Source of the DNA: Candidatus Omnitrophota bacterium
Lineage (GTDB): Bacteria; Omnitrophota; Gorgyraeia; 1-14-0-20-64-10
Direction of reading: 5' to 3'
DNA length: 64,000 nucleotides
Assembly: GCA_023248155.1 (NCBI GenBank)
Contig: JAHFFE010000003.1
Span: 80,042 to 144,041, forward strand
Part shown: piece by piece, positions 11,890 through 64,000 of the stretch
Position numbering within the stretch: position 1 is the first letter of the stretch
How the letters are laid out: the number at the start of each line of letters is the position of its first letter
The notes under the pieces: generated by a model
Databases searched by the model: none
Told to the model about the DNA's origin: nothing
Seen by the model: the letters and a program-made list of their open reading frames with translations, nothing else
Translations under genes and position numbers: made by a program

Positions 11890-11918
11890 TTGACAATGCT
11901 TGAGCGGTCAAGTATAAT
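11890..11918 (+). promoter_or_regulatory. Consensus sigma70 promoter for the transposase (TTGACA-17nt-TATAAT), predicted leaderless transcript
   Basis: -35 TTGACA at 11890-11895, an exact 17-nt spacer, -10 TATAAT at 11913-11918. The ATG at 11925 lies 7 nt downstream of the -10, with no Shine-Dalgarno. Confidence 0.6.
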
Positions 11919-11924
11919 ACTAAT

Positions 11925-12752: not shown

Positions 12753-12767
12753 AATTGAACCACTACC
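12741..12767 (-). repeat. Right terminal inverted repeat (IRR) of the element
   Basis: The reverse complement matches IRL at 22/27 positions. It contains the transposase stop codon. Confidence 0.65.
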
Positions 12768-12775
12768 AGCCCCCT
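12768..12775. repeat. Right copy of 8-bp direct repeat AGCCCCCT (putative target-site duplication)
   Basis: Identical to 10002-10009. IS1-family elements make 8-9-bp duplications. Confidence 0.6.
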
Positions 12776-12841
12776 CATTTCCTAGACGGCTGTCGTTCGT
12801 CATGATAAAATATTCTTTTTAACCCCGCTCAAGGAGTTTTC

Positions 12842-14149
12842 ATGAATATCTGTGTCGTCGGCGCCGGACATGTGGGCCTGGTCACCGCGGTTGGATTCGC
12901 GGAAATGGGGCATTCCGTTATTTGTATGGATACGGACCCCAAGAAACTGGCTCTTCTACGGAAAGGCAAGCCCTGGTTTTTCGAGCCGGGACTGGCGCCT
13001 CTGCTGGTTAAAAATCTCAAGAAAAAACGGCTTTCATTCACCGATAAAATCGCCGATGGCGTGAAGAAATGTCCGATTTTGTTTATCGCGGTTGGTACGC
13101 CTCCGCTGGCCTCCGGCGAGGCCGATTTAACCGCCGTCGAAGATGTCGTGCGGCAAATTGCCGATTCGGCCACCGAATACCGGTTGATCGTTGAGAAATC
13201 AACCGTCCCGGTGGAAACCGGCCGCCGCGTCAAGCAGGTGCTGGGTCTGGCGATGCGCCGCAAAATACAGATCGACGTGGCCTCGAATCCAGAATTTTTA
13301 CGCGAAGGATCAGGCGTGGAAGATTTCTTCCATCCGGAGCGGATCGTGATCGGCGTCGAAACAGCCCGTTCACGCCAGCTGCTGGAACAGTTGTACAAGC
13401 CATTTAAGGTTCCGCTGGTTGTGACCGATATCGCCAGCGCCGAATTAATCAAGCATTCCTCGAACGCCTTCCTTTCAATGAAAATCTCTTTTATTAACGC
13501 GGTCTCCGTTCTGTGCGATAAAGTGGGCGCTGATGTTTCCCGTGTGGCCGAAGGGATGGGGTACGATTCCCGCATCGGTAAATCATTTTTGAATGCCGGG
13601 GCCGGTTATGGCGGTTTCTGCTTTCCGAAAGACCTTGAAGCTTATATCCGGATCGCCGACAAACTCGGTTATGACTTTCAATTACTGAAGGCGGTCAAGC
13701 AGGTTAATGACGGCCAGCGCAAGATCGTGGTGCAAAAAATCGAACGTGAATTGTGGAACCTGAAGGGAAAAGTGATCGGCGTGCTGGGGTTGTCATTTAA
13801 GCCGGACACTGACGACCTTCGGTTTTCGCCGGCACTGGAAGTGATCGAGATGCTGCTGAAGGCGCAGGCCTCGGTGCGCGTCTATGATCCGGAATCGATG
13901 GCAGGCGCCCGCGCGATGCTGAAGAAAAGCGTTGCCTATGCCAAGGATGCGTACGCGGCCGCGCGCGACGCCGACTGTCTGGTACTGATGACTGAATGGG
14001 CGGAATTCAAAAAACTGGATTTTAAGAAACTGCGCGATTTAATGAAACAGCCGGTGCTGATGGATGCGCGCAACCTGTATGATCCGGACCGGGTGCGCCT
14101 GGCCGGATTACGCTATCTGGGCATGGGCCGCGGGGGCGACTCGAAATGA
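12842..14149 (+). CDS. ugd: UDP-glucose 6-dehydrogenase
   Basis: N-terminal NAD-binding ICVVGAGHVGLVTA, the catalytic Cys region GGFCFPKD, and a UDP-binding C-terminal domain. A perfect AAGGAG RBS lies upstream. Confidence 0.85.
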   Translation: MNICVVGAGHVGLVTAVGFAEMGHSVICMDTDPKKLALLRKGKPWFFEPGLAPLLVKNLKKKRLSFTDKIADGVKKCPILFIAVGTPPLASGEADLTAVEDVVRQIADSATEYRLIVEKSTVPVETGRRVKQVLGLAMRRKIQIDVASNPEFLREGSGVEDFFHPERIVIGVETARSRQLLEQLYKPFKVPLVVTDIASAELIKHSSNAFLSMKISFINAVSVLCDKVGADVSRVAEGMGYDSRIGKSFLNAGAGYGGFCFPKDLEAYIRIADKLGYDFQLLKAVKQVNDGQRKIVVQKIERELWNLKGKVIGVLGLSFKPDTDDLRFSPALEVIEMLLKAQASVRVYDPESMAGARAMLKKSVAYAKDAYAAARDADCLVLMTEWAEFKKLDFKKLRDLMKQPVLMDARNLYDPDRVRLAGLRYLGMGRGGDSK

Positions 14150-14883
14150 AAGGCGTTATTTTAGCCGGCGGTCTGGGTTCCCGCATGCGTCCGCTGACGC
14201 TGGTCACGAATAAACATCTGCTGCCGGTTTACAACCGGCCGATGATCTATTTCCCGATTCAGGCGCTGGCCGATGCCGGCATCGATGAAATTTTACTGGT
14301 AACCGGAGGCAACAGCGCCGGTGATTTTCTGCGATTGATTGGAAACGGCTCTCAGTTTGGATTAAAGCATATGAGTTACGCCTATCAGAAAGGCGAGGGC
14401 GGCATTGCCGAAGCGCTGGGGCTGGCCGAGCATTTCGCTGCCGGGGACCGGATTCTCGTCATGCTGGGCGATAATATCATTCAGGGCAATATCGGGCCGC
14501 ATGTTCGTTCCTATCTGAAGCAGTCGTCTGGCGCAAAAATCCTATTAAAGAAAGTTTCGGATCCAGAACGGTTCGGCGTCGCGGTTCTTAAAGGCAAGAA
14601 GGTAATCGGGATTGAAGAAAAGCCGAAGAAACCGAAATCAAACTGCATCGTGACCGGCATCTACATGTATGACCAGCAGGTATTCCAGATTATTAAAACA
14701 CTTAAGCCTTCAGGCCGCGGCGAGCTGGAAATTACGGACGTAAACAACGCCTATATCCGTATGGGACAGATGTCGTACGATGTTTTAAGCGGATTCTGGT
14801 CCGATTGCGGTACCTTCGAATCGCTGTTGAATGCCACGAACCTGGTTGCCCGCAGTGAAACCCGCAAGGGAAAACGCTCATGA
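14146..14883 (+). CDS. Sugar-1-phosphate nucleotidyltransferase (glucose-1-phosphate thymidylyltransferase-like, short form)
   Basis: MKGVILAGGLGSRMRPLT…NKHLLPV is the nucleotidyltransferase signature. 245 aa. It precedes RmlB/RmlD-like genes. Confidence 0.8.
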   Translation: MKGVILAGGLGSRMRPLTLVTNKHLLPVYNRPMIYFPIQALADAGIDEILLVTGGNSAGDFLRLIGNGSQFGLKHMSYAYQKGEGGIAEALGLAEHFAAGDRILVMLGDNIIQGNIGPHVRSYLKQSSGAKILLKKVSDPERFGVAVLKGKKVIGIEEKPKKPKSNCIVTGIYMYDQQVFQIIKTLKPSGRGELEITDVNNAYIRMGQMSYDVLSGFWSDCGTFESLLNATNLVARSETRKGKRS

Positions 14884-15854
14884 AATTATTCGTCACCGGC
14901 GGCGCCGGATTTATCGGATCGAATTTCGTCCGCTGGATGCTGCGCCGCAATTCGGACCTTCAGATCGTCAACTTCGACAAACTGACCTATGCCGGCAATC
15001 TCGAGAACCTGCGCGAACTTGAGGGAAATGCCCGATACCGTTTTGTGCGCGGCGATGTCGCCAATGCCGCCGAAGTGGAAGAAGCGATGCGCGGCTGTGA
15101 TGCCGCCGTTCATTTCGCGGCCGAAACGCATGTCGACCGATCGATCCGCGACGCGTTCGAATTTCTGCGCACGAATCTGCAGGGCACCTATGTCATGCTC
15201 GAAGCGGCGCGCAAACTGGGCATCAAACGCTATGTCCAGATTTCCACCGACGAAGTGTATGGTTCTCTGCCCGAAGGGGCCGCCGATGAGCAGGGACATA
15301 TCCAGCCCAACAGCCCGTACGCCGCCAGCAAAGCCGGCGCCGATCATCTGGTCCGCTCGTACCATGTCACGTTTGGGCTTCCATGCCTGGTCGTGCGCGC
15401 CTCCAATAATTACGGGCCGTACCAGTTCCCAGAGAAATTTCTTCCACTATTGATCACCAATGCGATGGACAACCAGTCGCTGCCGATTTACGGCGATGGA
15501 AAATATGTGCGCGAATGGCTGTTTGTCGAAGATTTCTGCTCGGCGATCGAGCTTGTTTTGAGCAAGGGTACCGTTGGACAAATTTATAATGTCGGATCTG
15601 AAGTTCATAAAATAAATCTCGATGTTGTTCAGGCCGTCTTGAAGCGGATGGGCAAACCGGAAACGCTGGTACGGCATGTTCAGGATCGGCCCGGACATGA
15701 CCGGCGCTATGCGATCGTTTCGAACAAGGTTCGCGCGCTCGGATGGAAACCCAGCTGCACTTTTGAAGAGGGACTCGATCGAACCATCGCCTGGTATCAG
15801 GCGAATGAAGCCTGGTGGCGGCCGTTAAAGCAGAAGGTTATGTCGGTCGCGTGA
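14880..15854 (+). CDS. rmlB: dTDP-glucose 4,6-dehydratase
   Basis: Extended SDR with [24 protein letters not shown] (YxxxK) and a conserved RmlB-type C-terminus. Confidence 0.85.
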   Translation: MKLFVTGGAGFIGSNFVRWMLRRNSDLQIVNFDKLTYAGNLENLRELEGNARYRFVRGDVANAAEVEEAMRGCDAAVHFAAETHVDRSIRDAFEFLRTNLQGTYVMLEAARKLGIKRYVQISTDEVYGSLPEGAADEQGHIQPNSPYAASKAGADHLVRSYHVTFGLPCLVVRASNNYGPYQFPEKFLPLLITNAMDNQSLPIYGDGKYVREWLFVEDFCSAIELVLSKGTVGQIYNVGSEVHKINLDVVQAVLKRMGKPETLVRHVQDRPGHDRRYAIVSNKVRALGWKPSCTFEEGLDRTIAWYQANEAWWRPLKQKVMSVA

Positions 15855-16771
15855 AAATTGTTTTGACCGGCTGTGCCGGAATGCTGGGGCGGCCGCTCGC
15901 AGAACTGCTCTCGGCAAAGGCGGAAGTGACTGGGATCGTCTTAACGATGCCGGAGGAAAAGCCGAAGGGCGTTTCTCGGTTGATCTCGGGGGATGTAGCC
16001 GATCCGGTCTGGGCCGATGAAATCCGCCGGATTAACCCGGACTGGGTGATTCATTCGGCCGCGATGACCGACGTGGACGGCTGTGAGAAAAATCCGGATG
16101 AAGCACTCCGGGTCAACGGTAAAGCCACGGAAAACTGGGCGAAGATCTGTCGTGATCTGGACAAGCCGCTGCTCTATGTGAGCACCGATTATGTTTTCGA
16201 TGGATCGAAGCAGGGCGCTTATGAGGAAACAGACCCGACTCATCCGGTCAGCGCGTACGGAGCGTCGAAACTGGCTGGAGAAACCGCGGCGCTGGCGCTG
16301 GTACCCAAGGTGCTGGTGGCCCGGACCGCCTGGACCTACGGTGCCGGCGGAAAAAATTTTATCGATCAGATTCTGGCGCGCGCAACGCAAAATCTGGAAC
16401 TGCGCGTGGTAGATGATCAAGTCGGATCACCGTCATATACGAATGATGTGGCTGATGGGATCGTCCGATTAATGGGCGCCTTTGAACAAAACGGTTTTTC
16501 GCCGGAAGCGCGCGGTGTTTATCATATTGTGAACAACGGTTCCTGTTCGCGCTGGGAACTGGCGGTAAAAATTCTGGAATTAACGGGGATCCGGATGCCC
16601 GTGCAGAAAATCGGATCGGCCGAGATTCAGCGGCCGGCGAAACGACCGGCAAACTCGGTATTATCGACCGAGCGGTTTAATCGCCTGACCGGGCAAGCGC
16701 TGCGGCCGTGGCAGGAAGCGCTTTACAGCTATTTACATAAGACAAGGAGGGTTGGAGCGTGCGTGTCTTAA
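15851..16771 (+). CDS. dTDP-4-dehydro-6-deoxyhexose reductase (RmlD family)
   Basis: GCAGMLG…, SAYGASKLAGE and the typical RmlD length. The GTG start overlaps the rmlB stop (GTGA). No RmlC-like gene is present in the locus. Confidence 0.75.
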   Translation: MKIVLTGCAGMLGRPLAELLSAKAEVTGIVLTMPEEKPKGVSRLISGDVADPVWADEIRRINPDWVIHSAAMTDVDGCEKNPDEALRVNGKATENWAKICRDLDKPLLYVSTDYVFDGSKQGAYEETDPTHPVSAYGASKLAGETAALALVPKVLVARTAWTYGAGGKNFIDQILARATQNLELRVVDDQVGSPSYTNDVADGIVRLMGAFEQNGFSPEARGVYHIVNNGSCSRWELAVKILELTGIRMPVQKIGSAEIQRPAKRPANSVLSTERFNRLTGQALRPWQEALYSYLHKTRRVGACVS

Positions 16772-17745
16772 TTACAGGAATCACCGGGTTTGCCGGATCG
16801 CATTTGACCGAATTGCTGCTGAAGAAGGGCGGCATCGAAGTATACGGAATCCAGCGCTGGCGTTCAAAGACGGACAACATTGACCACTTGAAGGGAAAGA
16901 TCCATCTGCTTGAATGCGATTTGCGCGATGCTTCTTCGGTTCTTCACGCGATCGAAAAGATCCGCCCCGAACGGATTTTTCATCTGGCCGCGCAATCGTT
17001 CGTTCCGGCTTCCTGGTCGGCGCCGGCTGAAACGCTTTCCACCAACCTGATCGGCCAGTTGAATATTTTCGAAGCGGTTCGTAAGGCCGGACTTTCGCCG
17101 CGTATCCAAATTGCCGGAAGTTCGGAAGAGTACGGCCTGGTGCTTCCCAACGAAGTTCCGATGACCGAAAACAATCCGCTGCGTCCGTTGAGCCCGTACG
17201 CGGTTTCCAAAGTAGCCCAGGATTTCCTGGGGTACCAGTACCATATGAGCTACAAAATATTTATCGTCCGCACTCGCGGATTCAATCATACCGGACCGCG
17301 GCGCGGCGATGTATTTGCCGAATCAAACTTCGCGATGCAGATCGCGCGCATTGAGGCCGGATTGCAGGAACCGATCATCCGCGTCGGCAACCTGGAAGCG
17401 CAGCGCGATTACACCGATGTGCGCGACATGGTCGAAGGCTATTGGCTTTCGCTGGAAAAGGGAACGGCCGGCGAAGTCTACAACATCGCCAGCGGAAAAA
17501 CCTGGTCGATTCAGAAAACGCTGGATATGCTGCTCAGCCACAGCTCGATCAAGGTCAAGATTATGCAGGATCCCGAGCGGATGCGGCCGTCCGACGTACA
17601 GATTTTGCTGGGCGACAACACGAAATTCGTGCAGGCAACCGGATGGAAACCGAAAATTCCGTTTGAAACAACGCTGAAAGATCTGCTCGACTATTGGCGC
17701 GAAAAAACCAAGTCGTCGGCTGCTCATGCCGAGTCTGCTCGATAA
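16759..17745 (+). CDS. GDP-mannose 4,6-dehydratase-family extended SDR (Gmd/Rmd-like)
   Basis: ITGITGFAGSHL, SPYAVSKV, NHTGPRRG and a Gmd-like overall arrangement. Dehydratase versus reductase cannot be decided. Confidence 0.65.
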   Translation: MRVLITGITGFAGSHLTELLLKKGGIEVYGIQRWRSKTDNIDHLKGKIHLLECDLRDASSVLHAIEKIRPERIFHLAAQSFVPASWSAPAETLSTNLIGQLNIFEAVRKAGLSPRIQIAGSSEEYGLVLPNEVPMTENNPLRPLSPYAVSKVAQDFLGYQYHMSYKIFIVRTRGFNHTGPRRGDVFAESNFAMQIARIEAGLQEPIIRVGNLEAQRDYTDVRDMVEGYWLSLEKGTAGEVYNIASGKTWSIQKTLDMLLSHSSIKVKIMQDPERMRPSDVQILLGDNTKFVQATGWKPKIPFETTLKDLLDYWREKTKSSAAHAESAR

Positions 17746-19054
17746 TTTAAACAAGAAAATCGCCGCCCGCAAAGCCCGGATTGCCGTCATCGGCCTGGGC
17801 TACGTGGGGCTGCCGCTGGCTGCGGCGTTTGCCTCAAAAGGATTTACGGTCTCCGGAATTGATCTCGATGAGGGGCGCGTTAAGCGCCTTCGCCGCAACG
17901 ATTCGTACATTCCCGATCTCGATTCCGGTTTTTTAAAGACGCTTTCGGACTCCGGCCGTTTTTCCGCTTCGCAAAAACCAGACGCGCTGAAAGAAGCCGA
18001 TGCCGTAATCATCTGCGTGCCAACGCCCGTAAAGCTCAACGTGAAAGGGGAGCGGCTCCCGGATCTGCACTGCCTTGAACAGGCAGCCGAACTGGTCGCC
18101 CGGAATTTTAAGCACGGCCAGCTGATTATTCTTGAAAGCACCACTTATCCGGGAACCACCGAAGAAATGATCCCGCCGCTGCTAAAAAAGAAGGGGCTGG
18201 TTCCGGACCGCGATTTTTTCCTGGCGTTCTCACCGGAGCGGATTGACCCGGGCAATCAGCGCTATTCGCTGGAGGCGATCCCGAAAATCGTCGGCGGCAT
18301 TACGCCGAAATCGACCCAGCTGGCCGAAGCGCTCTACGCCACGATTGTTCCGAAGGTGATCGCGGTTTCCTCGAGTATGACCGCTGAAATGGTGAAACTG
18401 CTCGAAAACACATTTCGCATCGTCAATATCGGCCTGGCCAACGAATTCGCGCTGATCTGCCATAAAATGGGCGTCGATGTGTGGGAAGTGATCGAGGCGG
18501 CCAAATCAAAACCATTCGGTTTCATGGCGTTTTCACCCGGGCCCGGAATCGGCGGCCATTGCATTCCGTCCGATCCGCATTATCTGACCTGGCGCGCAAA
18601 GAAGGAAGGCGCAGAGACGCGCCTAATTGATATCGCGGCGCGCGTGAATGCTCAGATGCCGCAGGCGATTGTGACCCGGACCGCGGAGCTGCTGAGCCGC
18701 AAGAAAAAAATCCTGAAAAATTCATCCGTTCTTTTGCTGGGCATGGCCTACAAACGCGATGTCAATGACACGCGCGAATCACCGGCCATTGAAATCTTTG
18801 AAGGGCTGAAAAGCCGCGGCGCCCGCGTGGTTTATCATGATCCCTGGGTGGAGTCGGTCCGAATAGGTAAAGCCACGGTTCGTTCTGCGGTATTAACGCC
18901 GGCGCTGCTGAAAAAAAGCGATTGCGTGATTATCACGACCGATCATTCCGACATTGATTATGCGCTGGTGGCAAAATCGGCGCCGCTGATATTCGATACA
19001 CGAAACGCGTACCGCGAATTTAAAAAGGTCCCGAAAAATGTCGTCCGCCTCTAA
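17726..19054 (+). CDS. UDP-N-acetyl-hexosamine 6-dehydrogenase (WbpA/WecC/TviB family nucleotide-sugar dehydrogenase)
   Basis: IAVIGLGYVGLPLA NAD-fold and a catalytic Cys region GGHCIPSDP. Its ~440-aa length fits the UDP-GlcNAc/ManNAc dehydrogenase clade. Confidence 0.8.
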   Translation: MPSLLDNLNKKIAARKARIAVIGLGYVGLPLAAAFASKGFTVSGIDLDEGRVKRLRRNDSYIPDLDSGFLKTLSDSGRFSASQKPDALKEADAVIICVPTPVKLNVKGERLPDLHCLEQAAELVARNFKHGQLIILESTTYPGTTEEMIPPLLKKKGLVPDRDFFLAFSPERIDPGNQRYSLEAIPKIVGGITPKSTQLAEALYATIVPKVIAVSSSMTAEMVKLLENTFRIVNIGLANEFALICHKMGVDVWEVIEAAKSKPFGFMAFSPGPGIGGHCIPSDPHYLTWRAKKEGAETRLIDIAARVNAQMPQAIVTRTAELLSRKKKILKNSSVLLLGMAYKRDVNDTRESPAIEIFEGLKSRGARVVYHDPWVESVRIGKATVRSAVLTPALLKKSDCVIITTDHSDIDYALVAKSAPLIFDTRNAYREFKKVPKNVVRL

Positions 19055-20186: not shown

Positions 20187-20187
20187 C

Positions 20188-23160: not shown

Positions 23161-23181
23161 AAATGGTAGAATAGTTTCATC

Positions 23182-24711: not shown

Positions 24712-24721
24712 ACGAATCCGA

Positions 24722-30680: not shown

Positions 30681-30682
30681 CG

Positions 30683-35328: not shown

Positions 35329-35329
35329 C

Positions 35330-39261: not shown

Positions 39262-39340
39262 CGGATCACCCAAAAACTGACTTTCAAGAGCCGTTTTAAT
39301 GGGTTATACTCAATCTTTAACCCAGAGGCTGACTTCCCCC

Positions 39341-41131: not shown

Positions 41132-41175
41132 TTGCTATAATAAAACAGATTCACAACGGAGGCAGACGATACGGA

Positions 41176-43207: not shown

Positions 43208-43209
43208 AC

Positions 43210-44385: not shown

Positions 44386-44388
44386 TTC

Positions 44389-46115: not shown

Positions 46116-46118
46116 TTC

Positions 46119-54355: not shown

Positions 54356-54360
54356 AAGGC

Positions 54361-58286: not shown

Positions 58287-59119
58287 GCGCCCATCCGCGC
58301 GTTTCACTCATTCTCGTTAATTACAACACCACCGACTGGCTTGCAAACTGCCTGGATTCATTAAAATCCGGACTGGATCTCCCGCATGAGATTTTCGTGG
58401 TCGATAACGCGTCAACCAACAGGGAAGCCATATCGGGCTTGATGGCTCTGCATCCAGAAGCCCGATTTATACAAAATGATTCCAACCGCGGATTCGCTGC
58501 GGCCAATAATCAGGCACTGCCGCTTTGTTCCGGAGACTGGATCTGGCTGCTTAACCCTGACACCAAAATCGGCGGCGGCTCATTACAACAATGGCTGGAA
58601 CCGCTGGAACAGGATCCAAAGATCGGGATCGCCGGCAACACGCTCCGTTATCCGGAAGGGCATATCCAGGTGTCGTGTGGAAAAATGCCCGGACTGGTTT
58701 CGGAATTCTTTCAGAAAAATTTCTGGAATAAAAAAGAAGCGAGCCCGGCCGGCCGGCAATGGCTGGAACGCTATGCGCAAACCGGACGGGAGGTTGACTG
58801 GGTGCTGGGCGCCAGCCTGTTTATCCGCCGGAAAACATGTGAAACCATCGGCCCGCTCGACGAACAGTTTTTTATCTATTTTGAGGAAACCGACTGGTGC
58901 GCGCGCGCAAAAAAAGCGGGCTGGAGCGTGGTCTACCAACCGGGATTTACCGTGATCCATTGGCGCGAACGGGCCACTTCGCAGAAACCCCGGGAAATGG
59001 GGCAGGCCTACCGGAAAAGTCAGCTTCTTTTCTACCGGAAACATCACGGAATAATTCAGGCCGCCGGGCTTGCGCTCTATTTGCGCATTAAATATGGTTT
59101 CAAAAGGGCTCTTCCATGA
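58283..59119 (+). CDS. GT2-family glycosyltransferase
   Basis: VSLILVNYNT, VDNASTN and NPDTKI motifs. Confidence 0.8.
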   Translation: MSAHPRVSLILVNYNTTDWLANCLDSLKSGLDLPHEIFVVDNASTNREAISGLMALHPEARFIQNDSNRGFAAANNQALPLCSGDWIWLLNPDTKIGGGSLQQWLEPLEQDPKIGIAGNTLRYPEGHIQVSCGKMPGLVSEFFQKNFWNKKEASPAGRQWLERYAQTGREVDWVLGASLFIRRKTCETIGPLDEQFFIYFEETDWCARAKKAGWSVVYQPGFTVIHWRERATSQKPREMGQAYRKSQLLFYRKHHGIIQAAGLALYLRIKYGFKRALP

Positions 59120-60237
59120 AGCGAGTCGTGCTGGATGCCCGGATGATCGGCCATACCGGAATCGGCCGATACCTTCAATGTTTAATCCCTGAACTGGATG
59201 ATCCGGCCTACCGGCTTGAACTTTTAGGCGATCCTGATCGATTGTCGGTGGTTGGGGGCGGGGACCGGAGAATCCTCCATCCTCTGTCGACACCGGTTTA
59301 CGGGTTATCCGAATTGTGGAGCGTATCCAGCGCAGCGGCCGGAGCAGATCTCCTGCATTGCCCGCACTTTAATATTCCATTATCGATCCCGAAGAAAACG
59401 CGGCTCGTCGTTACAATACACGACCTGATTTATGTCAGGATCCCTGAATCGATGCCGTCGCCGGCGGGGCGATGGTATGTCCGAACCCAGCTGATGCGCG
59501 TCGCGCGCCGCGCCGATGAGATTATCGCGGTCTCCGAATTCACGAAAAACGATTTTTGTGATTATACCGGGTGCGATCCGTCCAAAGTAACCGTCGTCCA
59601 CTCGGGGGTATCCGAAGAGCTGCGTCCGGTAACCGATCCGGCCTTAAGAGAAAACCAACGGCGCGCGCTGAATCTGCCGGCCCGCTATCTTCTCTGGGTC
59701 TCGGCCATCAAGCCGCATAAAGATCTGCCTCTCATGGCTGAAGCATTCCGCCGCATCCGAGAAAAAGATTCGCAACTGCACTGGGTCATCATTGGGAAGC
59801 CGGATAAACTGATGCAGACTTATTTTGAGCAGCTCTTAAAAGACCCCGCGCTGGCGCCGGCGATTCACTGGTTCCCAAGCGTTGAACCAGAAAAACTGCT
59901 CTGGTTTTATAATCTGGCGGAACTGTTCGTAACGCCTTCGCGGTACGAGGGGTTCGGTTTTCCTCCACTGGAGGCGATGGCCTGCGGCGTTCCGGTAGCG
60001 GCAGCAAAAACCGCATCACTTCCGGAAATTCTGGGTGAAGCGGCCGCCTGGTTTCCGCCGGGAAACATTGAAGCGCTCGTCGAAACCGTCTATAATGTTC
60101 TATCTGACCCGACCGTACGGCAACGGCTGATCGAGCGGGGAACAGAGCAAGCCCGGCGTTATTCCTGGAAACAAACCGGCCGGGCGACGCGACAAATCTA
60201 TGAGCGATGGCTTTCCCGAGGTAGCGTTCGTCCATGA
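59116..60237 (+). CDS. GT4-family glycosyltransferase
   Basis: Has the GT-B C-terminal domain with the [18 protein letters not shown] motif. Confidence 0.8.
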
Positions 60238-61324
60238 CTGGCTGGTTACGATGCGCGGCGGAGAACAAGTTCTGGCGATTCTCCATCGCAACTGGCCGGA
60301 TGCTCCCATTTACACACTTCTTTCCGACCGCAAACGACTGACATCGGGCCTGAAAAACGCCGATCTTCGGCATTCCTATCTGCAAAAAATTCCCGGACTC
60401 AGCCGGTTCCACCGATGGCTGCTTCCGTTTTATCCGGCGGCCGCTAAAAAACTCCAAATCAATACGGGGCCCTCCATTGTCATCAGCGTCAGCCATTCGT
60501 TCGCCAAGGGGGTTCCCAAACCGTACGGAACATTTCACCTTTGTTACTGCCTGACGCCGATGCGCTACGCCTGGCAGCATCCCGAACTTTATTTTCCAAA
60601 ACCGCTGCAAATCCTCGGGATCTCAAATCGGTGGAGCCGGAAACTCAAGCAATGGGATCTGGAATCCAACCGGAATGTCGACCGGTTTGTGGCGATATCA
60701 ACCGTCGTACAAAAACGGATTAAAGAATGGTACGGCAGGGAATCAGATCTGATTTATCCGCCGGTTCATACCGAACGATTTCTGCACGCGGAAAGAGCGC
60801 CTCAGGATTTCTATCTGGTGGTCAGCGCGCTGGTGCCGTACAAACGAGTCGATCTGGCGATAGCCGCCTGCAAGCGGCTGGGCAAGAAACTGGTGATTGC
60901 CGGCGACGGACCCTGCCGCAAGGCGCTGCAGATTCAGGCGCAGGGATCGGAAGTGGAATTCCTCGGTTATTGCCCGACGCAAACGCTCGAATCGCTCTAC
61001 GCAAAAGCGAGGGCGCTGATCTATCCTCAGGAAGAAGATTTCGGAATCGCCTCCGTTGAAGCGCAAGCGGCCCGCTGTCCCGTCATAGCGTTCCGGGCGG
61101 GCGGAGCGTTGGATACCGTCATCGAAAACGAAACCGGCCTCTTTTTTGATTATCAGTCCGATGAATCGCTGATGGACGCCATGGAACGTTTCGAAAAGAC
61201 AGCGTTCGATCCATGGGCGATCCGGCGCAACGCGTTCCGGTTTGATGAAAAAGTGTTTGAGCAATCGTTCCGGGAATTAGTCCGCAAAATCCGGGACGGG
61301 AGCCTGCGCTCCGATGTCGGATAG
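60200..61324 (+). CDS. GT4-family glycosyltransferase
   Basis: Has the EDFGIASVEAQAARCPVIA E-x7-E motif. Confidence 0.75.
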   Translation: MSDGFPEVAFVHDWLVTMRGGEQVLAILHRNWPDAPIYTLLSDRKRLTSGLKNADLRHSYLQKIPGLSRFHRWLLPFYPAAAKKLQINTGPSIVISVSHSFAKGVPKPYGTFHLCYCLTPMRYAWQHPELYFPKPLQILGISNRWSRKLKQWDLESNRNVDRFVAISTVVQKRIKEWYGRESDLIYPPVHTERFLHAERAPQDFYLVVSALVPYKRVDLAIAACKRLGKKLVIAGDGPCRKALQIQAQGSEVEFLGYCPTQTLESLYAKARALIYPQEEDFGIASVEAQAARCPVIAFRAGGALDTVIENETGLFFDYQSDESLMDAMERFEKTAFDPWAIRRNAFRFDEKVFEQSFRELVRKIRDGSLRSDVG

Positions 61325-62717
61325 ATTCCGCCGAACACCCGCCGCCCCGATTTTCCTGCTGATCGCTCTGGACACGGCCAGCATCGTCACCGGTGTATTG
61401 GCATCCTACTGGATCCGCTTTTTCAGCGGAAAAATTCCGCTGCTTCTGGCAGTTCCGCCGCTGGAATGGTACACGCGGGCGCTTGGCATTATCACCGGCG
61501 TATTTCTTCTGGCGCTGCATTCAGAACAACTGTACAACATGGACCGTCCGCGCAGCGCGTCCGAAGAATGCGGCGCTGTTTTCTGGGGCGTAACCAAGGC
61601 TGTTTTCGCGTTGATGGCGCTGACATTTTTGGCGCGCGAATTTTCTTACTCCCGCGCGACGCTGATTCTCGCCTGGGGGCTGATCACCGGATTCCTGATC
61701 ATTGAACGGCTCTTGTTCGGAAGATTTTTTTCCGCCTGGAAAAATGCTCGGGGGCAAGTCCGCCGCGTTCTGCTGGTGGGACAAAATCCTGCCGCCGGGC
61801 GGATTCTGCAGCAGCTTCAAAACAACCCGCGCTGGGGATACCGTTTGATCGGCCGCGTTGAAACCGAATCGGCCAAGCCCGCTTCCGGAACAGGACTTCG
61901 TTCACTGGGCAGTTTAGCCCATATACCGGAAATACTGCAGCAGCATCAGGTCACCGATCTGCTGCTGCTTGACCCATTATTGCCGCGCGAACAGATCGGC
62001 TCGATCGTGCTGGCCTGCGAAAAAGAAATGGTTTCTTTCCGGATGCTTCCGGACATCATCGGCATGATGACAATCCCGCTGTCCGTTGAACAGTGGACCG
62101 GCCTTCCGCTGCTGGGAATCAAAATGCCTCCATTGGATGATCCCTGGAATCGTTTTCAAAAACGGGTAATGGACATCACCGTTTCATTGATCGCGCTGGT
62201 CATTTTACTGCCGTTGCTTATTCTGATCGCGCTGGCGGTCCGTTTCGAATCCAACGGACCGGTTTTTTACCGGCAGGAACGGCTCGGGCAGGACGGAAAA
62301 ATATTCCGGATCCTAAAATTCCGGACCATGCGCGCCAATGCCGAAGCCGCGACCGGACCGGTCTGGGCCCAACAAAACGATCCGCGGCGCACGGCGCTGG
62401 GCGGATTTCTGCGCCGCACCAATCTGGATGAACTGCCTCAACTGTGGAATGTACTGTCGGGTGAAATGAGCCTGGTCGGACCCCGCCCCGAACGGCCGCA
62501 TTTCGTGAATCAGTTCAAGGAAGAGATCCCGCGGTACATGGCGCGGCACCGGATCAAATCGGGTATCACGGGCTGGGCGCAAATTCACGGATTGCGCGGA
62601 GACACCTCGATTGAAGAGCGAACCCGGTACGATCTTTATTACGCGGAGCGCTGGTCTCTGACGCTTGATCTTCTCATTATGGCCCGTTCCCTCGGAGCGG
62701 TCAAAAATGCCTATTAA
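61314..62717 (+). CDS. Polyprenyl-phosphate hexose-1-phosphate transferase (WbaP/EpsB-type bacterial sugar transferase)
   Basis: N-terminal TM helices plus the C-terminal catalytic domain YRQERLG…KFRTM…DELPQLWNVL…MSLVGPRP. Confidence 0.85.
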   Translation: MSDRFRRTPAAPIFLLIALDTASIVTGVLASYWIRFFSGKIPLLLAVPPLEWYTRALGIITGVFLLALHSEQLYNMDRPRSASEECGAVFWGVTKAVFALMALTFLAREFSYSRATLILAWGLITGFLIIERLLFGRFFSAWKNARGQVRRVLLVGQNPAAGRILQQLQNNPRWGYRLIGRVETESAKPASGTGLRSLGSLAHIPEILQQHQVTDLLLLDPLLPREQIGSIVLACEKEMVSFRMLPDIIGMMTIPLSVEQWTGLPLLGIKMPPLDDPWNRFQKRVMDITVSLIALVILLPLLILIALAVRFESNGPVFYRQERLGQDGKIFRILKFRTMRANAEAATGPVWAQQNDPRRTALGGFLRRTNLDELPQLWNVLSGEMSLVGPRPERPHFVNQFKEEIPRYMARHRIKSGITGWAQIHGLRGDTSIEERTRYDLYYAERWSLTLDLLIMARSLGAVKNAY

Positions 62718-63936
62718 ACAGGCGGAACGCTGGGCGGCACGTTGGTTTGAATTCTGCCTTTACTTGATCCTGATCGGAATCCCCGTCTCGCGCGCGCTCG
62801 TTGAAATCGGGTCGACGGGTGCTTTGGCCGGATGGATTTGGCTTGGATTCATCCGAAAAAACTGGGGGTTCCGGTCATCACCGGTCTTCTGGCCTCTGCT
62901 GGGCTATACGCTTTTTTCGGGACTTTCTTATTTCTGGAGCGGACACCGCGACGCGACGCTTTCATCCTGGGTAGGAAAAACAATTCAATATTCCGGACTT
63001 TATCTGGCTGCCTGGGGCGGACTGCGCGACTTAAAAACGATCCGGCGGCTGCTCTGGGCAACACTGGTCATCGCCGCGATCATCTGCGCGGACGGTCTCT
63101 ATCAGATAGCGACCGGACATGATTTTTTTCTCGGTTACGGAGCCGGTCTGCTCGCGGAGGGCCGGCGAATGACGGCGACGCTGAAATATCCAAATGACCT
63201 GGGCGCTTATCTGGGTTTTGTTTTCTGGATCGGAGCCGGAATTCTGTGGGCCGACCTGCGCGCGAAACGAGTCCGTTGTCTGATGCTGTCATTGCTGTTG
63301 ACCATCATCGCCGGTTGCGTGGTGCTGACCTATTCGCGATCGGCCTGGATGGGTTTGGGTGCCGCGCTGTTTTTCTTCACGCTTTTAAGCCGCAAGAAAA
63401 AAATGGCCTGGATCGCGGCGATCGGCCTGATGACGCTGGCCGCGCTGCTTCCGACCCGCTTCATGAACCGCGGTTCCGGTTTTTTTGACATTCACGCCGG
63501 TTCCTCTTCTGAGGAGCGCCTGCTGGTCTGGGATGCCACCTGGAAAATGATCCAGGACCGTCCCGTCGCCGGAAGCGGATTAAATACGTTCAACGCCGAA
63601 TTTCGCAAATACAAACCGGAACAGGTCTGGGGAAATCCATACGTCCACAATTCCTATCTGCAGATGACGGCAGAGCAGGGGTTCATCGGGCTGATCCTTT
63701 TCCTATCGATCCTCGTCGGTTTTTTTTCATACGGCCTGGTGATCAATCCCGGACTCTCGATCGAAGGACGGCTGGCGCATGGCCTCTCGGCCGGACTGGT
63801 CGGTTATCTGGTCCATAGTTTCTTTGATTCAAATCTCTATATCCTTCCGCTGGCCGCGCTGTTCTGGACTTTTATGGGAATCACCAGCCGCCTGCACGCG
63901 CTGGCCGCCGTGAGCACCCGTCCGGAAAAATCATGA
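62707..63936 (+). CDS. O-antigen ligase/polymerase-family membrane protein (Wzy_C domain)
   Basis: Polytopic, with the TYSRSAWMGLGAALFF segment typical of O-antigen-ligase domains. It overlaps the upstream stop by 11 nt. Confidence 0.65.
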   Translation: MPIKQAERWAARWFEFCLYLILIGIPVSRALVEIGSTGALAGWIWLGFIRKNWGFRSSPVFWPLLGYTLFSGLSYFWSGHRDATLSSWVGKTIQYSGLYLAAWGGLRDLKTIRRLLWATLVIAAIICADGLYQIATGHDFFLGYGAGLLAEGRRMTATLKYPNDLGAYLGFVFWIGAGILWADLRAKRVRCLMLSLLLTIIAGCVVLTYSRSAWMGLGAALFFFTLLSRKKKMAWIAAIGLMTLAALLPTRFMNRGSGFFDIHAGSSSEERLLVWDATWKMIQDRPVAGSGLNTFNAEFRKYKPEQVWGNPYVHNSYLQMTAEQGFIGLILFLSILVGFFSYGLVINPGLSIEGRLAHGLSAGLVGYLVHSFFDSNLYILPLAALFWTFMGITSRLHALAAVSTRPEKS

Positions 63937-64000
63937 ACCGGATCGCGGTGATCCGCACCGACCGGATCGGGGACCTGTTAATGACGATGCCGGCCGTCGG
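63934..64000 (+). CDS. GT9 ADP-heptose:LPS heptosyltransferase, N-terminal fragment (continues beyond window)
   Basis: MNRIAVIRTDRIGDLLMTMPAV matches the GT9 heptosyltransferase N-terminus. The start overlaps the upstream stop (ATGA). Confidence 0.55.

Follow-up and report, generated by a model that had tools for sequence, protein, structure and literature searches.

Gene content of the region downstream of lptD

Between positions 12842 and 63936 of the window, by which we mean the entire 64,000-nucleotide stretch of DNA that was analyzed, ORF listing and junction analysis reveal 38 complete ORFs on the plus strand, followed by a partial 39th that represents a GT9 gene. Neighboring genes overlap by 4 nt (ATGA or GTGA) at no fewer than 14 junctions, and the widest intergenic gaps measure 44 nt (41132-41175), 37 nt (39262-39298), and 21 nt (23161-23181). 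The original prediction of more than 35 consecutive, tightly packed plus-strand genes with no gap above about 80 nt is thereby borne out. Its extent, 12842-64000, is an accurate description of the chain inside the window but not of its end: in an independent assembly (L009), which matches the window without a mismatch across 12,687 shared bases, the chain runs on with two further abutting genes, the order after g38 being a GT9 gene (312 aa), a methyltransferase gene, a 238-nt gap at about window-equivalent position 65,701, and a PEP-mutase fusion gene. In total, the locus comprises about 40 co-directional, translationally packed surface-sugar genes and spans about 53 kb (about 52.9 kb). Long minus-strand ORFs within it were treated as shadows since they overlap plus-strand ORFs with strong Pfam matches.

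The first eight genes form a conserved nucleotide-sugar "head" (g01-g08; 12842-21123, plus strand), assigned through Pfam and NCBIfam:

12842-14149, plus strand: g01, ugd
14146-14883, plus strand: g02, RmlA-like
14880-15854, plus strand: g03, 4,6-dehydratase
15815/15851-16771, plus strand: g04, RmlD-type reductase
16759-17745, plus strand: g05, SDR dehydratase
17726-19054, plus strand: g06, UDP-ManNAc/GlcNAc dehydrogenase family
19038-20186, plus strand: g07, DegT aminotransferase
20143-21123, plus strand: g08, SDR epimerase

The ugd, rmlA, and rmlB genes are 66-73% identical to their counterparts in a related genome (L016); rmlC is absent from the head and gave no tblastn match. The body of the locus harbors genes for glycosyltransferases and tailoring enzymes, among them the tailoring block g17-g20 (36553-41131) and the run g21-g28 (41176-49692):

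22405-23160, plus strand: g10, small GT2 with a polyprenyl-phosphate sugar synthase-like catalytic domain, paralog of g19 and g31
23182-24711, plus strand: g11, B12-binding radical SAM enzyme, HpnJ/BchE-like (Pfam/NCBIfam, under cut-offs)
24722-27568, plus strand: g12, three-domain glycosyltransferase (GT4 + GT2 + GT2), 948 aa, three C-terminal TM helices; an ortholog lies at the matching position in the related locus L011
36553-37623, plus strand: g17, Acyl_transf_3 (Pfam)
37610-38584, plus strand: g18, SAM methyltransferase (Pfam)
38581-39261, plus strand: g19, DPMS/ArnC-like GT2 (DPMS 5MLZ, E = 4e-24)
39299-41131, plus strand: g20, carbamoyltransferase (Pfam)
41176-42138, plus strand: g21, NanM-like sugar O-methyltransferase (weak; g21-g28 by Pfam/NCBIfam)
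42101-43207, plus strand: g22, GT2
43210-44385, plus strand: g23, GT4
44389-45360, plus strand: g24, SDR epimerase
45357-46115, plus strand: g25, GNAT
46119-47984, plus strand: g26, AsnB-type amidotransferase
47876/47981-48715, plus strand: g27, methyltransferase
48712-49692, plus strand: g28, SDR, GDP-fucose-synthase-like
54361-55308, plus strand: g31, ArnC/GtrB-type polyprenyl-phosphate glycosyltransferase, two C-terminal TM helices (full-length ArnC 9HWJ, E = 4e-51; GtrB 5EKP, 1e-34)
55295-56491, plus strand: g32, DegT/ArnB-type aminotransferase (Pfam)
58283-59119, plus strand: g34, GT2, cytoplasmic Leloir glycosyltransferase (Pfam)
59116-60237, plus strand: g35, GT4, cytoplasmic Leloir glycosyltransferase (Pfam)
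60200-61324, plus strand: g36, GT4, cytoplasmic Leloir glycosyltransferase (Pfam)

Interspersed with these are genes for GT-C enzymes and associated membrane proteins:

27555-30680, plus strand: g13, AftD-like GT-C glycosyltransferase, 1,041 aa (AF2 model, Foldseek, profile)
30683-32197, plus strand: g14, conserved membrane protein, 504 aa, always between the two GT-C genes
32179-35328, plus strand: g15, AftD-like GT-C glycosyltransferase, 1,049 aa, probable start 32194 (Pfam GT-C_AftD, 31.1 bits, cut-off 26)
35330-36556, plus strand: g16, membrane protein, 408 aa, paralog of g30
49689-53117, plus strand: g29, third AftD-like GT-C glycosyltransferase, 1,142 aa (paralogy, TM topology)
53114-54355, plus strand: g30, membrane protein, 413 aa, paralog of g16
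56448-58286, plus strand: g33, YfhO-like GT-C glycosyltransferase, 612 aa (AF2 model, Foldseek, family matches)

The AF2 model of g13 (pLDDT 87.9) retrieves AftD (6W98) as its top Foldseek match (E = 2e-22), followed by STT3, PglB, AftA, and ArnT, and AftD is the sole PDB match of the g13 family profile. Its paralog g15 (E = 3e-85) and g29, a paralog of both (E = 2e-56 and 8e-54 to g13 and g15, respectively, with shared TM topology), complete this set. For g33 (pLDDT 91), the best 26 Foldseek PDB matches are all GT-C enzymes; 12 of its 50 family members match Pfam YfhO, five match PMT_2, and the profile matches STT3 at 5e-5. Family and profile searches returned no family match for g14, g16, or g30. 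Counterparts of g14 in L011 and L012 are 63 and 44% identical to it, and its weak hhalign match to the profile of YfhO-like proteins has a probability of 28%; g16 aligns with the periplasmic beta-domain of the AftD-like family at an hhalign probability of 48%. The core block g09-g12-g13-g14-g15-g16 recurs in L011, and similar loci are present in L012. Together with the ArnC/GtrB-like lipid-sugar synthases, the three AftD-like enzymes and the YfhO-like enzyme point to extensive periplasmic glycosylation.

Four genes bear on initiation, flipping, and polymerization or ligation:

21120-22412, plus strand: g09, probable divergent Wzx/MOP-type flippase (weak), 430 aa, about 10-12 TM helices
61314-62717, plus strand: g37, WcaJ-type initiating polyprenyl-phosphate hexose-1-phosphate transferase (NCBIfam)
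62665-63936, plus strand: g38, Wzy_C-family membrane protein (Pfam Wzy_C, 89.6 bits; gene-caller start 62707)
63933-64000, plus strand: 5' end of a GT9 heptosyltransferase-family gene, overlapping the stop codon of g38

The assignment of g09 draws on a homolog of 83% identity that JGI lists as "O-antigen/teichoic acid export membrane protein", a distant match carrying PF13440, and one homolog each matching MatE and Polysacc_synt at about 1e-3; a PDB search gave no match. Pfam and NCBIfam confirm the predicted ugd gene at the head and the Wzy_C (O-antigen ligase family) and GT9 genes at the tail. The tail phosphotransferase had been called WbaP-type. In NCBIfam it scores 434.5 bits with the WcaJ model TIGR03023, whose cut-off is 410.75, and 453 bits with TIGR03025, whose cut-off is 295.55, but stays under that of the WbaP model; it is therefore assigned to the WcaJ type. 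Judged from its family, g38 could be a WaaL-type ligase, a Wzy polymerase, or a PglL-type transferase; its NCBIfam matches lie under the cut-offs. Family searches across the locus found no Wzz, clear Wzy polymerase, ABC transporter, or small GtrA/GtcA/ArnEF-type flippase, so that the route of export and polymerization is incomplete.

The lptD-ugd junction, its insertion sequence, and promoter-like elements

The junction between lptD and ugd contains the following features:

7683-9992, plus strand: lptD (start at 7722 according to gene callers)
10003-10008, no strand: left copy of the target-site duplication GCCCCC (6 bp; boundary analysis)
10009-12768, plus strand: cargo-carrying IS1-family IS, 2,760 bp (inverted-repeat pair, target-site duplication, related termini)
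10009-10036 and 12741-12768: left and right inverted repeats (inverted-repeat-pair search)
10140-11623, plus strand: four passenger ORFs (10140-10388, 10389-10757, 10781-11029, 11075-11623)
11612-11716, minus strand: candidate small structured antisense RNA (promoter-like site, three hairpins, terminator)
11890-11918, plus strand: transposase-gene promoter, perfect sigma-70 consensus TTGACA-17-TATAAT
11925-12752, plus strand: intact single-ORF IS1-family transposase, 275 aa, co-directional with the locus
12769-12774, no strand: right copy of GCCCCC (6 bp; boundary analysis)
12783-12811, plus strand: native ugd promoter-like element, intact downstream of the IS (motif conservation in five genomes)

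The identification of lptD combines weak Pfam LptD_2/LptD_N matches, 92 homologs that stem from Omnitrophica in every named case and are called LptD by their sources, and synteny in L003, L006, L014, and L016. In four of the five relatives, lptD is directly followed by ugd across a spacer of 16-48 nt that lacks an IS. The adjacency noted in the original prediction is real; by this comparison it is ancestral in the clade and not a product of the IS.

An IS at the 5' boundary of the locus is genuine and can be delimited exactly through its inverted repeats (29 nt, with 83% complementarity and all nine terminal positions identical) and the duplicated GCCCCC. Its GC content is 43.5% vs. 54% for the host, and 73 nt separate its right end from the downstream ugd ATG. 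The transposase is 55-58% identical to annotated IS1-family transposases over 99-100% of its length, with an NCBIfam transpos_IS1 score of 60.5 bits (under the cut-off of 100). The second passenger ORF is weakly retropepsin-like, and the other three gave no match in family searches. The antisense RNA candidate has a minus-strand promoter-like site (11750-11722), a terminator (11651-11626), and a predicted fold of -44.1 kcal/mol (z = -5.09); no Rfam family matched it. Because the transposase ATG follows its -10 element by 6 nt, a leaderless mRNA is suggested. The perfect duplication, the low GC content, and the intact transposase suggest a recent insertion. In the independent assembly, 12768 is the exact first position of the ugd contig, and the lptD contig stops at 12670 and shows two mismatches; scans of JGI metagenomes, a collection that does not include the source sample, yielded neither an IS-free allele nor a second IS copy.

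The closest known counterparts are cargo-carrying single-ORF IS1-family elements such as the one of 3,372 bp on Mesorhizobium loti plasmid p_1 (CP050295.1, 470342-473713), with a 58% identical transposase. The two elements have nearly identical termini (GGTAGTGGGTCAGTTTGAA; 20/21 positions match the perfect inverted repeats of the Mesorhizobium element), each duplicates 6 bp of its target, and in each the cargo ORFs precede a transposase gene at the right end; the cargo (here four small ORFs, one of them retropepsin-like), the length of 2,760 bp, and the host phylum differ. Classical IS1 measures 768 bp, carries two ORFs joined by a frameshift, and generates an 8-9-bp duplication, whereas this IS has a single-ORF transposase, 2,760 bp, and a 6-bp duplication.

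To our knowledge, no promoters have been characterized so far in the Omnitrophota; our promoter calls are motif-based and rely on the strict extended -10 motif TGnTAwAAT. Each of the five genomes compared has this motif between lptD and ugd, against a chance expectation of about 0.007. In the window it reads TGATAAAAT at 12803-12811, 34 nt beyond the IS end, preceded by the -35-like TAGACG at 12783-12788. The claim that the IS sits in the promoter thus finds no support. Elsewhere on the plus strand of the 64-kb window, the strict motif has a single copy, TGCTATAAT (41133-41141, plus strand), which lies in the largest internal gap, where a GGAGG Shine-Dalgarno sequence and the g21 ATG follow, and marks a candidate internal promoter; an extended -10-like variant, TGGTAGAAT (23164-23172, plus strand), lies in the 21-nt gap between g10 and g11. 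A relaxed version of the motif is overrepresented in the 60 nt that precede gene starts (5/18, binomial P = 0.0013). With the second strict copy lying inside the locus, several promoters are likely.

A putative surface-glycan pathway and related systems

In our view, the region probably constitutes the main undecaprenyl-phosphate-based LPS/O-antigen-type surface-glycan locus of this uncultured Candidatus Omnitrophota bacterium, arranged as a co-directional, multi-promoter array whose IS is recent and promoter-sparing. The head would provide UDP-GlcA, dTDP-6-deoxyhexoses, and amino and uronic-acid sugars. The WcaJ-type phosphoglycosyl transferase would then prime undecaprenyl phosphate, onto which GT2/GT4 Leloir enzymes, including the 948-aa g12, would assemble a lipid-linked glycan in the cytoplasm. 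Tailoring would involve methyl-, carbamoyl-, acyl/acetyl-, and amidotransferases and the B12-radical-SAM enzyme, and the MOP-like g09 might flip the product. In the periplasm, the four GT-C enzymes would add or extend sugars, with polyprenyl-phosphate sugars made by the ArnC/GtrB/DPMS-like g31, g19, g10, and the middle domain of g12 as presumed donors. The Wzy_C protein encoded beside the GT9 gene may attach the glycan to lipid A-core; export would follow through the Lpt pathway, whose outer-membrane component LptD is encoded immediately upstream of the locus.

With rfb-type O-antigen/LPS clusters, the locus shares ugd and rml genes in first position, many GT2/GT4 genes, an initiating phosphoglycosyl transferase, a Wzy_C-family protein, an adjoining GT9 gene, and a co-directional, tight array with a conserved head and a variable body behind it. 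It differs from them in lacking a recognizable Wzz, Wzy, or ABC transporter, in its four GT-Cs and three to four lipid-sugar synthase domains, and in its anchoring beside lptD. Leptospira rfb loci are likewise very long and almost unidirectional; for the Omnitrophota, an uncultured nanobacterial phylum, we know of no LPS structure. Four membrane GT-C enzymes predicted to add sugars outside the cytoplasm make the locus unusual among LPS/O-antigen-type loci.

Glycosylation by multi-component GT-C systems is established, with three-component extracytoplasmic systems represented by GtrA/GtrB/GtrC of Shigella and Salmonella, CsbB/GtcA/YfhO of Bacillus and Listeria, and ORF15/14/12 (GT136) of Citrobacter (PMC11127046, PMC5836110, PMC7389260). 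Here, too, a GtrB/ArnC/CsbB-type enzyme with two C-terminal TM helices (g31) is encoded two genes from the YfhO-like g33, and the AftD-like enzymes possess beta-rich periplasmic domains, as in CBM-bearing GT-Cs. In contrast, no GtrA, GtcA, or MATE flippase was recognized in this locus, the membrane proteins g16/g30 and g14 sit at the expected flippase position, and four GT-Cs occur in one locus instead of a single add-on module. For g13/g15/g29, the top match in both structure and profile comparisons (E = 2e-22 and 3e-9) is the mycobacterial arabinofuranosyltransferase AftD (6W98; bioRxiv 10.1101/2019.12.22.885152). Shared features are a GT-C membrane domain at the N terminus and an extensive beta-rich part in the periplasm, together with a lysine (K380) that is invariant and an aspartate in the first loop outside the cytoplasm (D38) that is nearly so. 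The proteins studied here are shorter (1,040-1,140 vs. about 1,400 aa), 12-13% identical to AftD, and end in a single C-terminal TM helix instead of the ACP-binding TM bundle; the window contains no DPA-pathway genes, and the host, a diderm that has LptD, does not belong to the actinobacteria. The Arn system for L-Ara4N modification of lipid A has ugd, an ArnB-type (g32), an ArnC-type (g31, E = 4e-51), and a GT-C enzyme (g33) in common with the locus, where g31-g33 are contiguous. However, this module lies inside an O-antigen-type locus, the searches turned up no ArnA (formyltransferase/decarboxylase fusion), ArnD, or ArnE/F, and ArnT ranks 18th among the structural matches of the YfhO-like g33.

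Alternative readings of the product, the transcription unit, and the IS

If g38 were a polymerase or a protein O-oligosaccharyltransferase, the locus could produce a capsule or else a glycan of proteins or the S-layer. This non-LPS reading (capsule/EPS, or protein or S-layer O-glycan) would render the proximity of lptD and GT9 coincidental. It could appeal to the best matches of g37, which are to the EPS-type models TIGR03025 (EPS_sugtrans) and WcaJ, to the best NCBIfam match of g38 ("putative O-glycosylation ligase, exosortase-associated", under the cut-off), and to the Wzy_C domain being common to ligases, polymerases, and PglL. We regard it as unlikely, given that the lptD-ugd adjacency is kept in four of five relatives, that the GT9 gene overlaps the Wzy_C gene, and that Pfam searches found no Wza, Wzc, or exosortase genes in the window.

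A similarly improbable reading takes the 51-kb block as a super-operon whose single promoter has been disrupted or replaced by the IS, on which expression would then depend. No element resembling an intrinsic terminator was found in any intergenic spacer, no gap exceeds 44 nt, the IS severs ugd from an lptD gene that is 16-48 nt away in relatives, and the perfect-consensus transposase promoter points toward ugd with neither a terminator nor a stable structure found in between. Set against this are the conserved extended -10 element left intact downstream of the IS and the recurrence of this rare motif, and of its variant, in internal gaps. Moreover, every one of the window's approximately 50 ORFs lies on the plus strand, those from dnaK to lptD are packed just as tightly, and the syntenic regions of relatives are likewise one-stranded and overlap-dense; packing alone, therefore, does not define one transcription unit, and the term "super-operon" loses its meaning as a special property of the locus. 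As far as sequence motifs can tell, a single promoter is unlikely, which is the direction the original prediction had named as its refutation (many internal promoters). Under the multi-promoter reading that we prefer, transcription most likely starts at the conserved extended -10 promoter, which precedes ugd by 30 nt, and anew at one or two extended -10 sites within the locus (41133, possibly 23164), which would make the locus a co-directional gene array and not one operon. The IS would uncouple ugd from any lptD read-through while sparing the core promoter. Alternatively, it might be a neutral passenger in a permissive spacer, without any effect on expression and possibly confined to part of the population, a possibility that we take seriously although we lean against it. 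Both flanking ORFs and the promoter-like element are spared, the duplication is perfect, the GC content is low, and the independent assembly breaks at the IS; an empty-site allele was, however, not found in the scanned collection. Of the proposed influence of the IS on the locus, interference with the native promoter-like element finds no support, and read-through remains as a physically possible contribution: the strong outward transposase promoter, unobstructed by a terminator, makes some transcription from the IS into ugd likely.

Extent and packing of the glycan locus

An LPS/O-antigen-type glycan locus of very large size is indeed present downstream of lptD, and an insertion sequence (IS) lies at its 5' edge. 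The original prediction of a one-strand glycan locus running from ugd to a phosphotransferase, an O-antigen-ligase-family protein and a GT9 enzyme is confirmed and sharpened by our ORF and junction tables and by Pfam and NCBIfam searches. Positions 12842-63936 hold 38 complete + strand ORFs (g01 to g38), after which the window includes 22 codons from the start of a 39th, GT9 (MNRIAVIRTDRIGDLL...). Between locus ORFs, the widest gaps amount to 44, 37, 21 and 10 nt, and canonical 4-nt ATGA or GTGA overlaps are present at at least 14 junctions when sensible start codons are chosen. Pfam and NCBIfam support both end-points of the locus (g11 is listed for later reference):

12842, + strand: start of ugd (g01), UDP-glucose dehydrogenase family
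23182-24711, + strand: g11, B12-binding radical SAM enzyme, HpnJ/BchE-like below cut-offs
61314-62717, + strand: large PGT (g37)
62665/62707-63936, + strand: Wzy_C protein (g38)
from 63933, + strand: GT9 gene

L009, a contig from an independent ENA assembly of the same organism with 0 mismatches to the window over 12,687 shared bases, carries the chain on through the GT9 (312 aa) and a methyltransferase (274 aa) gene to a 238-nt gap with a promoter-like site, TTGACG-17-(TG)GAAAAT. Because L009 reveals where the chain stops, the tight chain can be put at about 40 genes and 52.9 kb. The next + strand gene past this gap encodes a PEP-mutase/nucleotidyltransferase fusion (L009 14388-16068; window-equivalent ~65,701-67,381), which suggests a possible phosphonate decoration of a glycan or lipid.

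The entire 64-kb window is one + strand chain. The same-strand genes upstream, (hrcA-grpE-)dnaK-dnaJ-Zn-ribbon-DUF1015-accD-ABC ATPase-GAF/GGDEF-GGDEF-lptD, are joined by junctions as tight as those in the locus, and the overlap-dense packing on one strand is therefore a trait of this genome region and no hallmark of the glycan locus. Both the co-directional packing and the presence of an IS are ordinary, and nothing in the locus overturns current concepts. The seeming 235-nt gap between dnaJ and DUF1015 (1573-1809) holds a 78-aa Zn_ribbon_8 ORF, which lies below the ORF-length threshold of the window listing and is called in L002, another independent-assembly contig, and in the relatives. Directly upstream of lptD, and syntenic in all relatives, are tandem diguanylate cyclase genes (GAF-GGDEF and GGDEF, 5030-7695) that may link c-di-GMP signalling to envelope genes.

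The insertion sequence and the lptD-ugd junction

The placement of the locus next to lptD had been singled out as notable; the adjacency is real, but it is ancestral. The order GGDEF-ROK-lptD-ugd-rmlC-rmlA-rmlB-rmlD is kept in four of five relatives (LptD 53-59% identical), the fifth having an unrelated giant gene after lptD. All LptD homologues derive from Candidatus Omnitrophica/Omnitrophota wherever source names are given (one entry, on a 280-kb contig, is 100% identical), and a contig scan with LptD found solely one distant (30%) Omnitrophota locus, which has no glycan genes after its lptD. In the four syntenic relatives (L003, L006, L014 and L016), the spacers between lptD and ugd measure 48, 16, 37 and 48 nt, and none of them contains an IS.

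In the window, a discrete low-GC stretch of 2,760 bp (10009-12768; GC 43.5% vs. 54%) lies between the two genes. Its ends are 29-nt terminal inverted repeats whose core is identical at 9/9 positions (TGGTAGTGG), and a perfect 6-bp direct repeat, GCCCCC, is found on both flanks. These exact ends and the target duplication bear out the predicted insertion at the 5' boundary of the locus; removal of the element and one GCCCCC copy leaves a spacer of 83 nt (reconstructed empty site ...CCCAAAGCCCCCTCATTTCC...). The following features are pertinent to this region:

10140-11623, + strand: four small IS cargo ORFs (82 aa; 122 aa, weakly retropepsin-like, RVP; 82 aa; 182 aa)
11612-11750, - strand: small RNA candidate within the IS, located after the final cargo ORF and before the transposase gene
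11890-11918, + strand: transposase promoter, perfect TTGACA-17-TATAAT, pointing at ugd
12783-12788, + strand: -35-like TAGACG, downstream of the IS end
12803-12811, + strand: extended -10, TGATAAAAT
L003, lptD-ugd junction: extended -10, TGCTATAAT
L006, L014 and L016, lptD-ugd junctions: extended -10, TGATATAAT

The first cargo ORF abuts the weakly RVP-like one via a TAAATG junction, and the 82-aa and 182-aa ORFs downstream of the latter gave no family match; the cargo is possibly a toxin-antitoxin or defence-like pair. After the cargo and a 300-nt non-coding stretch, the right end of the element is occupied by an intact gene for a 275-aa transposase of the IS1-type DDE class, sharing 55-58% identity along its whole length with annotated IS1-family transposases. 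Its NCBIfam transpos_IS1 score of 60.5 bits lies below the cut-off of 100, and its Pfam DDE_Tnp_IS1 score is 26.2 bits. Classical IS1 measures about 770 bp, encodes InsA and InsB joined by a -1 frameshift and generates an 8-9-bp target-site duplication; the window element departs from this layout with its single 275-aa ORF, its 2,760 bp including cargo, and its 6-bp duplication. The closest annotated transposase relative belongs to a 3,372-bp element on a Mesorhizobium loti plasmid, whose perfect 23-nt inverted repeats (GGGTAGTGGGTCAGTTTGAAATT) match the terminus of the window IS at 20/21 positions and which likewise has a 6-bp duplication and cargo ORFs upstream of its transposase gene. Since termini, duplication length and cargo layout agree, the window IS falls into a recognisable cargo-bearing, single-ORF subgroup of IS1. 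Its non-coding stretch has, on the - strand, a promoter-like TTGACT-17-TAGAAT (11750-11722) that points towards a strong terminator on that strand (11651-11626). The intervening antisense segment of ~100 nt folds at -44.1 kcal/mol (z = -5.1); an Rfam search of the IS region returned no family for this candidate small RNA, only one sub-threshold chance match to a snoRNA.

We reject an assembly chimera at the IS, given the perfect target duplication and the second assembly, which repeats the left IS junction. In that assembly the ugd contig starts exactly at 12768 and the lptD contig (L002) ends at 12670, breaks that are repeat-type assembler behaviour. Its two mismatches to the window, at 12659 and 12665, fall in the final 12 bases of the contig, inside the transposase gene, and would fit reads that stem from another IS copy of slightly different sequence. 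Scans of JGI metagenomes detected neither a further IS copy (by the inverted-repeat consensus) nor an IS-free empty site; these scans are uninformative rather than negative because the source sample comes from ENA/NCBI and lies outside JGI.

The IS had been thought to sit in the promoter region of the locus. Our data place it instead upstream of an intact and phylogenetically conserved, predicted promoter element. An extended -10 motif is present at the lptD-ugd junction of the window and of all four syntenic relatives (5/5). The strict form, TGnTAwAAT, occurs six times on the + strand in the 131 kb examined, five of these occurrences being lptD-ugd junctions; the chance expectation in the spacers is about 0.007 matches. 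With both the extended -10 and the -35-like TAGACG located downstream of the IS end (12768), the core ugd promoter-like element is intact. The IS parts ugd from lptD and ends any read-through coupling between them. Read-through from the IS into ugd is conceivable, because the perfect transposase promoter faces ugd and no terminator-like element or significant structure lies between the transposase stop and the ugd ATG; such transcription would not, however, be required for expression of the locus. The transposase ATG follows its -10 by 6 nt, with no Shine-Dalgarno sequence (11890-11927), and a leaderless mRNA is therefore implied. TATAAT also precedes the ugd ATG by 7-12 nt in L006 and L016, so leaderless starts may be common in this lineage. 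In L016 (12380-12430), the true ugd start probably lies upstream of the called one: 12 nt after TATAAT, an in-frame ATG opens the peptide MKICVIGAG, which fits the conserved ugd N-terminus. The conserved TGnTAwAAT offers a testable promoter signature for Omnitrophota, and the precisely mapped IS a natural experiment on whether transposition alters surface-glycan expression.

Is the locus a single super-operon of more than 51 kb, as originally proposed? Its genes are co-directional, no gap exceeds 44 nt, and all terminator-like matches lie inside ORFs; to this extent the proposal stands. A sole 5' promoter, on the other hand, is not what we find, at least at the level of sequence. The sixth strict TGnTAwAAT, at 41133, lies in the largest internal gap (g20/g21), followed by GGAGG and the ATG of g21; the 21-nt gap between g10 and g11 contains an extended -10 variant (TGGTAGAAT, 23164); and matches to the relaxed extended -10 fall more often than expected in the 60 nt before start codons (5/18, P = 0.0013). 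Generic sigma-70 and terminator scans found the spacers otherwise at or below shuffle expectation. The recurrence of the strict motif, the g10/g11 variant and the enrichment of relaxed motifs therefore favour a co-directional array with at least two or three predicted promoters; super-operon status is not established, and these motifs lean against it.

Sugar-nucleotide, tailoring and membrane glycosyltransferase genes

The head of the locus (g01-g08) encodes Ugd, RmlA/B/D-like enzymes, a second NDP-sugar dehydratase, an enzyme of the UDP-ManNAc/GlcNAc-dehydrogenase family, a DegT aminotransferase and an epimerase. With 66-73% identity to their counterparts in relatives, Ugd, RmlA and RmlB are better conserved than LptD. 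In contrast to all four syntenic relatives, the window has no ROK-family gene before lptD and no rmlC after ugd (7695/7683; 14149/14146), and neither this gene nor rmlC (dTDP-sugar 3,5-epimerase) gave a tblastn match anywhere in the window. Because rmlC is absent from it, the rmlA/B/D trio cannot make dTDP-L-rhamnose from window genes. According to Pfam and NCBIfam, the body of the locus combines Leloir GT2/GT4 enzymes, among them the 948-aa GT4-GT2-GT2 protein g12 with its C-terminal TM helices, with two further epimerases, the B12-radical-SAM enzyme g11, which may catalyse C-methylation or ring rearrangement of a sugar, three SAM methyltransferases, a weakly NanM-like sugar O-methyltransferase, an Acyl_transf_3 protein, a GNAT enzyme, a carbamoyltransferase and an AsnB-type amidotransferase. 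The tail consists of two GT4 enzymes, a WcaJ-type PGT, the Wzy_C protein, the GT9 enzyme and a methyltransferase. From this inventory we would expect an LPS-type glycan with heavy decoration by methyl, carbamoyl, amide and acyl groups; phosphonate genes follow closely downstream.

The most interesting content of the locus is the concentration of AftD-like and YfhO-like GT-C enzymes together with lipid-sugar synthases and conserved membrane partners. The proteins g13 (1,041 aa), g15 (1,049 aa) and g29 (1,142 aa) are paralogues (mutual E = 1e-54 to 1e-85) in which about nine TM helices at the N-terminus are followed by a large soluble region and, at the C-terminus, one more TM helix. Single-sequence PDB searches with g15 and g33 gave no match, so that profiles and structure prediction were needed. 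g15 passes the Pfam GT-C_AftD cut-off, and a profile of the 30-sequence AftD-like family matched only mycobacterial AftD in the PDB (E = 3e-9). The AlphaFold model of g13 (pLDDT 87.9, pTM 0.83) retrieved AftD in Foldseek (6W98; E = 2e-22, TMq 0.55), followed by STT3, PglB, AftA and ArnT. On this evidence, the three proteins are AftD-like GT-C enzymes with a GT-C membrane domain and a large periplasmic, predicted carbohydrate-binding region. AftD itself has about 1,400 aa, a C-terminal ACP-binding TM bundle and a decaprenyl-phospho-arabinose donor pathway; g13, g15 and g29 differ from it in being shorter and in having one C-terminal TM helix, and the window holds no DprE1/E2- or UbiA-type genes. 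In the family alignment, D38 of the first extracytoplasmic loop is near-invariant, and K380 and R375 are invariant. Essential active-site residues of AftD are K39, D41, E251, K361 and D474 (bioRxiv 10.1101/2019.12.22.885152), and D38/K380 are compatible with D41/K361 but do not prove residue equivalence, the HMM alignment over the TM region being not significant.

The fourth GT-C candidate is g33 (612 aa). Its family, large and unnamed, has 3,075 representatives, and members of it match YfhO, PMT_2 and PTPS_related; the top of the fold-search list for its model (pLDDT 91) contains only GT-C enzymes. g31 is a full-length polyprenyl-phosphate glycosyltransferase of the ArnC/GtrB type (ArnC E = 4e-51; GtrB 1e-34), and its catalytic domain is common to g19, g10 and the middle domain of g12; these proteins are plausible donor synthases matching the GT-C enzymes. 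g33 and g13/g15/g29 provide the GT-C component of three-component glycosylation; the locus contains no Pfam family for GtrA, GtcA, ArnE/F or MATE and no room for a small ORF. The genes g31 (ArnC-like), g32 (ArnB-like) and g33 (GT-C) are contiguous, a layout reminiscent of Arn and CsbB/YfhO systems (PMC5836110, PMC7389260, PMC11127046). We rejected a full Arn (Ara4N) pathway, given that ArnA, ArnD and ArnE/F are absent and g33 is YfhO-like.

Assembly and export of the glycan

The initiating polyprenyl-phosphate glycosylphosphotransferase, g37, passes the TIGR03023 (WcaJ) and TIGR03025 (EPS-sugar-transferase) cut-offs. It remains below that of the WbaP model; the WbaP-type designation made at the outset accordingly gives way to WcaJ type. 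A Wzy-dependent route would call for Wzy together with Wzz; we found no recognisable Wzy polymerase in the locus and no Wzz match by Pfam or NCBIfam among its 38 complete ORFs and the GT9 fragment. The single Wzy_C protein, g38 (89.6 bits), translationally coupled to the GT9 gene, could be Wzy or WaaL, not both; the Wzy_C family is common to ligase, polymerase and PglL, and g38 could be any of these, which sequence alone does not separate. For an ABC-transporter-dependent route, 12842-64000 offers no ABC_tran or ABC2_membrane (Wzm/Wzt) match, the sole ABC ATPase of the window being MalK-like (3921-5024). g09 itself matched nothing in Pfam, NCBIfam or PDB; a Wzx/MOP flippase identity is weakly supported by weak MatE and Polysacc_synt matches in homologues and by the name that one source gives to a homologue.

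No Pfam, NCBIfam or PDB match allowed us to assign g09, g14 or g16/g30. Their positions are those in which one would look for a polymerase, a lipid-sugar flippase or an accessory subunit of a GT-C, and we point to these three conserved membrane-protein families, which lack annotation, as candidates for the polymerase or flippase functions that are missing. For the lipid-sugar flippase they are putative, positional candidates only; profile-profile comparisons were weak (probabilities of 28% for g14 and 48% for g16), and naming any of them confidently Wzx, Wzy or flippase was rejected. g14 (504 aa, 30683-32197; counterparts at 7447-8976 in L011 and 13933-15411 in L012, two other Omnitrophota glycan loci) is more conserved across genomes (63% and 44% identity) than the flanking GT-C enzymes (48% and 32%) and has a dense run of invariant charged motifs (FGVDSWRHL...DKPSDYPP).

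One could picture the bulk of the surface heteroglycan of this diderm nanobacterium being built outside the cytoplasm, in a manner resembling that of mycobacterial arabinan. A WcaJ-primed, lipid-linked primer would be extended by the three AftD-like and the one YfhO-like GT-C from polyprenyl-phosphate sugars, two previously undescribed conserved membrane-protein families (g14; g16/g30) would replace the missing Wzy, Wzz and flippase functions, and ligation of the product to lipid A-core would follow, with export through the neighbouring Lpt machinery. If true, this would add a fourth route of O-antigen assembly to the Wzy-, ABC- and synthase-dependent ones; we regard the scheme as a whole as rather unlikely. 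The locus varies a known theme, periplasmic glycosylation by several components. It does so in Omnitrophota, a phylum of ultra-small, uncultured bacteria that probably depend on hosts, and we know of no account of their envelope or cell-surface chemistry. For a small genome, about 53 kb is a great deal to commit to one locus. AftD-type GT-C enzymes have, to our knowledge, so far been studied only in Actinobacteria, and they are here extended into diderm LPS-type loci. The Leptospira rfb loci, very long and almost unidirectional, offer a further comparison. Comparable arrangements recur within the phylum: the block g09-g12-g13-g14-g15-g16 has the same order in L011, and L012, from a further Omnitrophica MAG, has a comparable locus that is likewise dense in overlaps and encodes an AftD-like GT-C, AsnB, a carbamoyltransferase and a YfhO-like protein. 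A recent preprint describes polysaccharide cassettes of Omnitrophota as hyper-variable (bioRxiv 10.64898/2026.05.20.726742).
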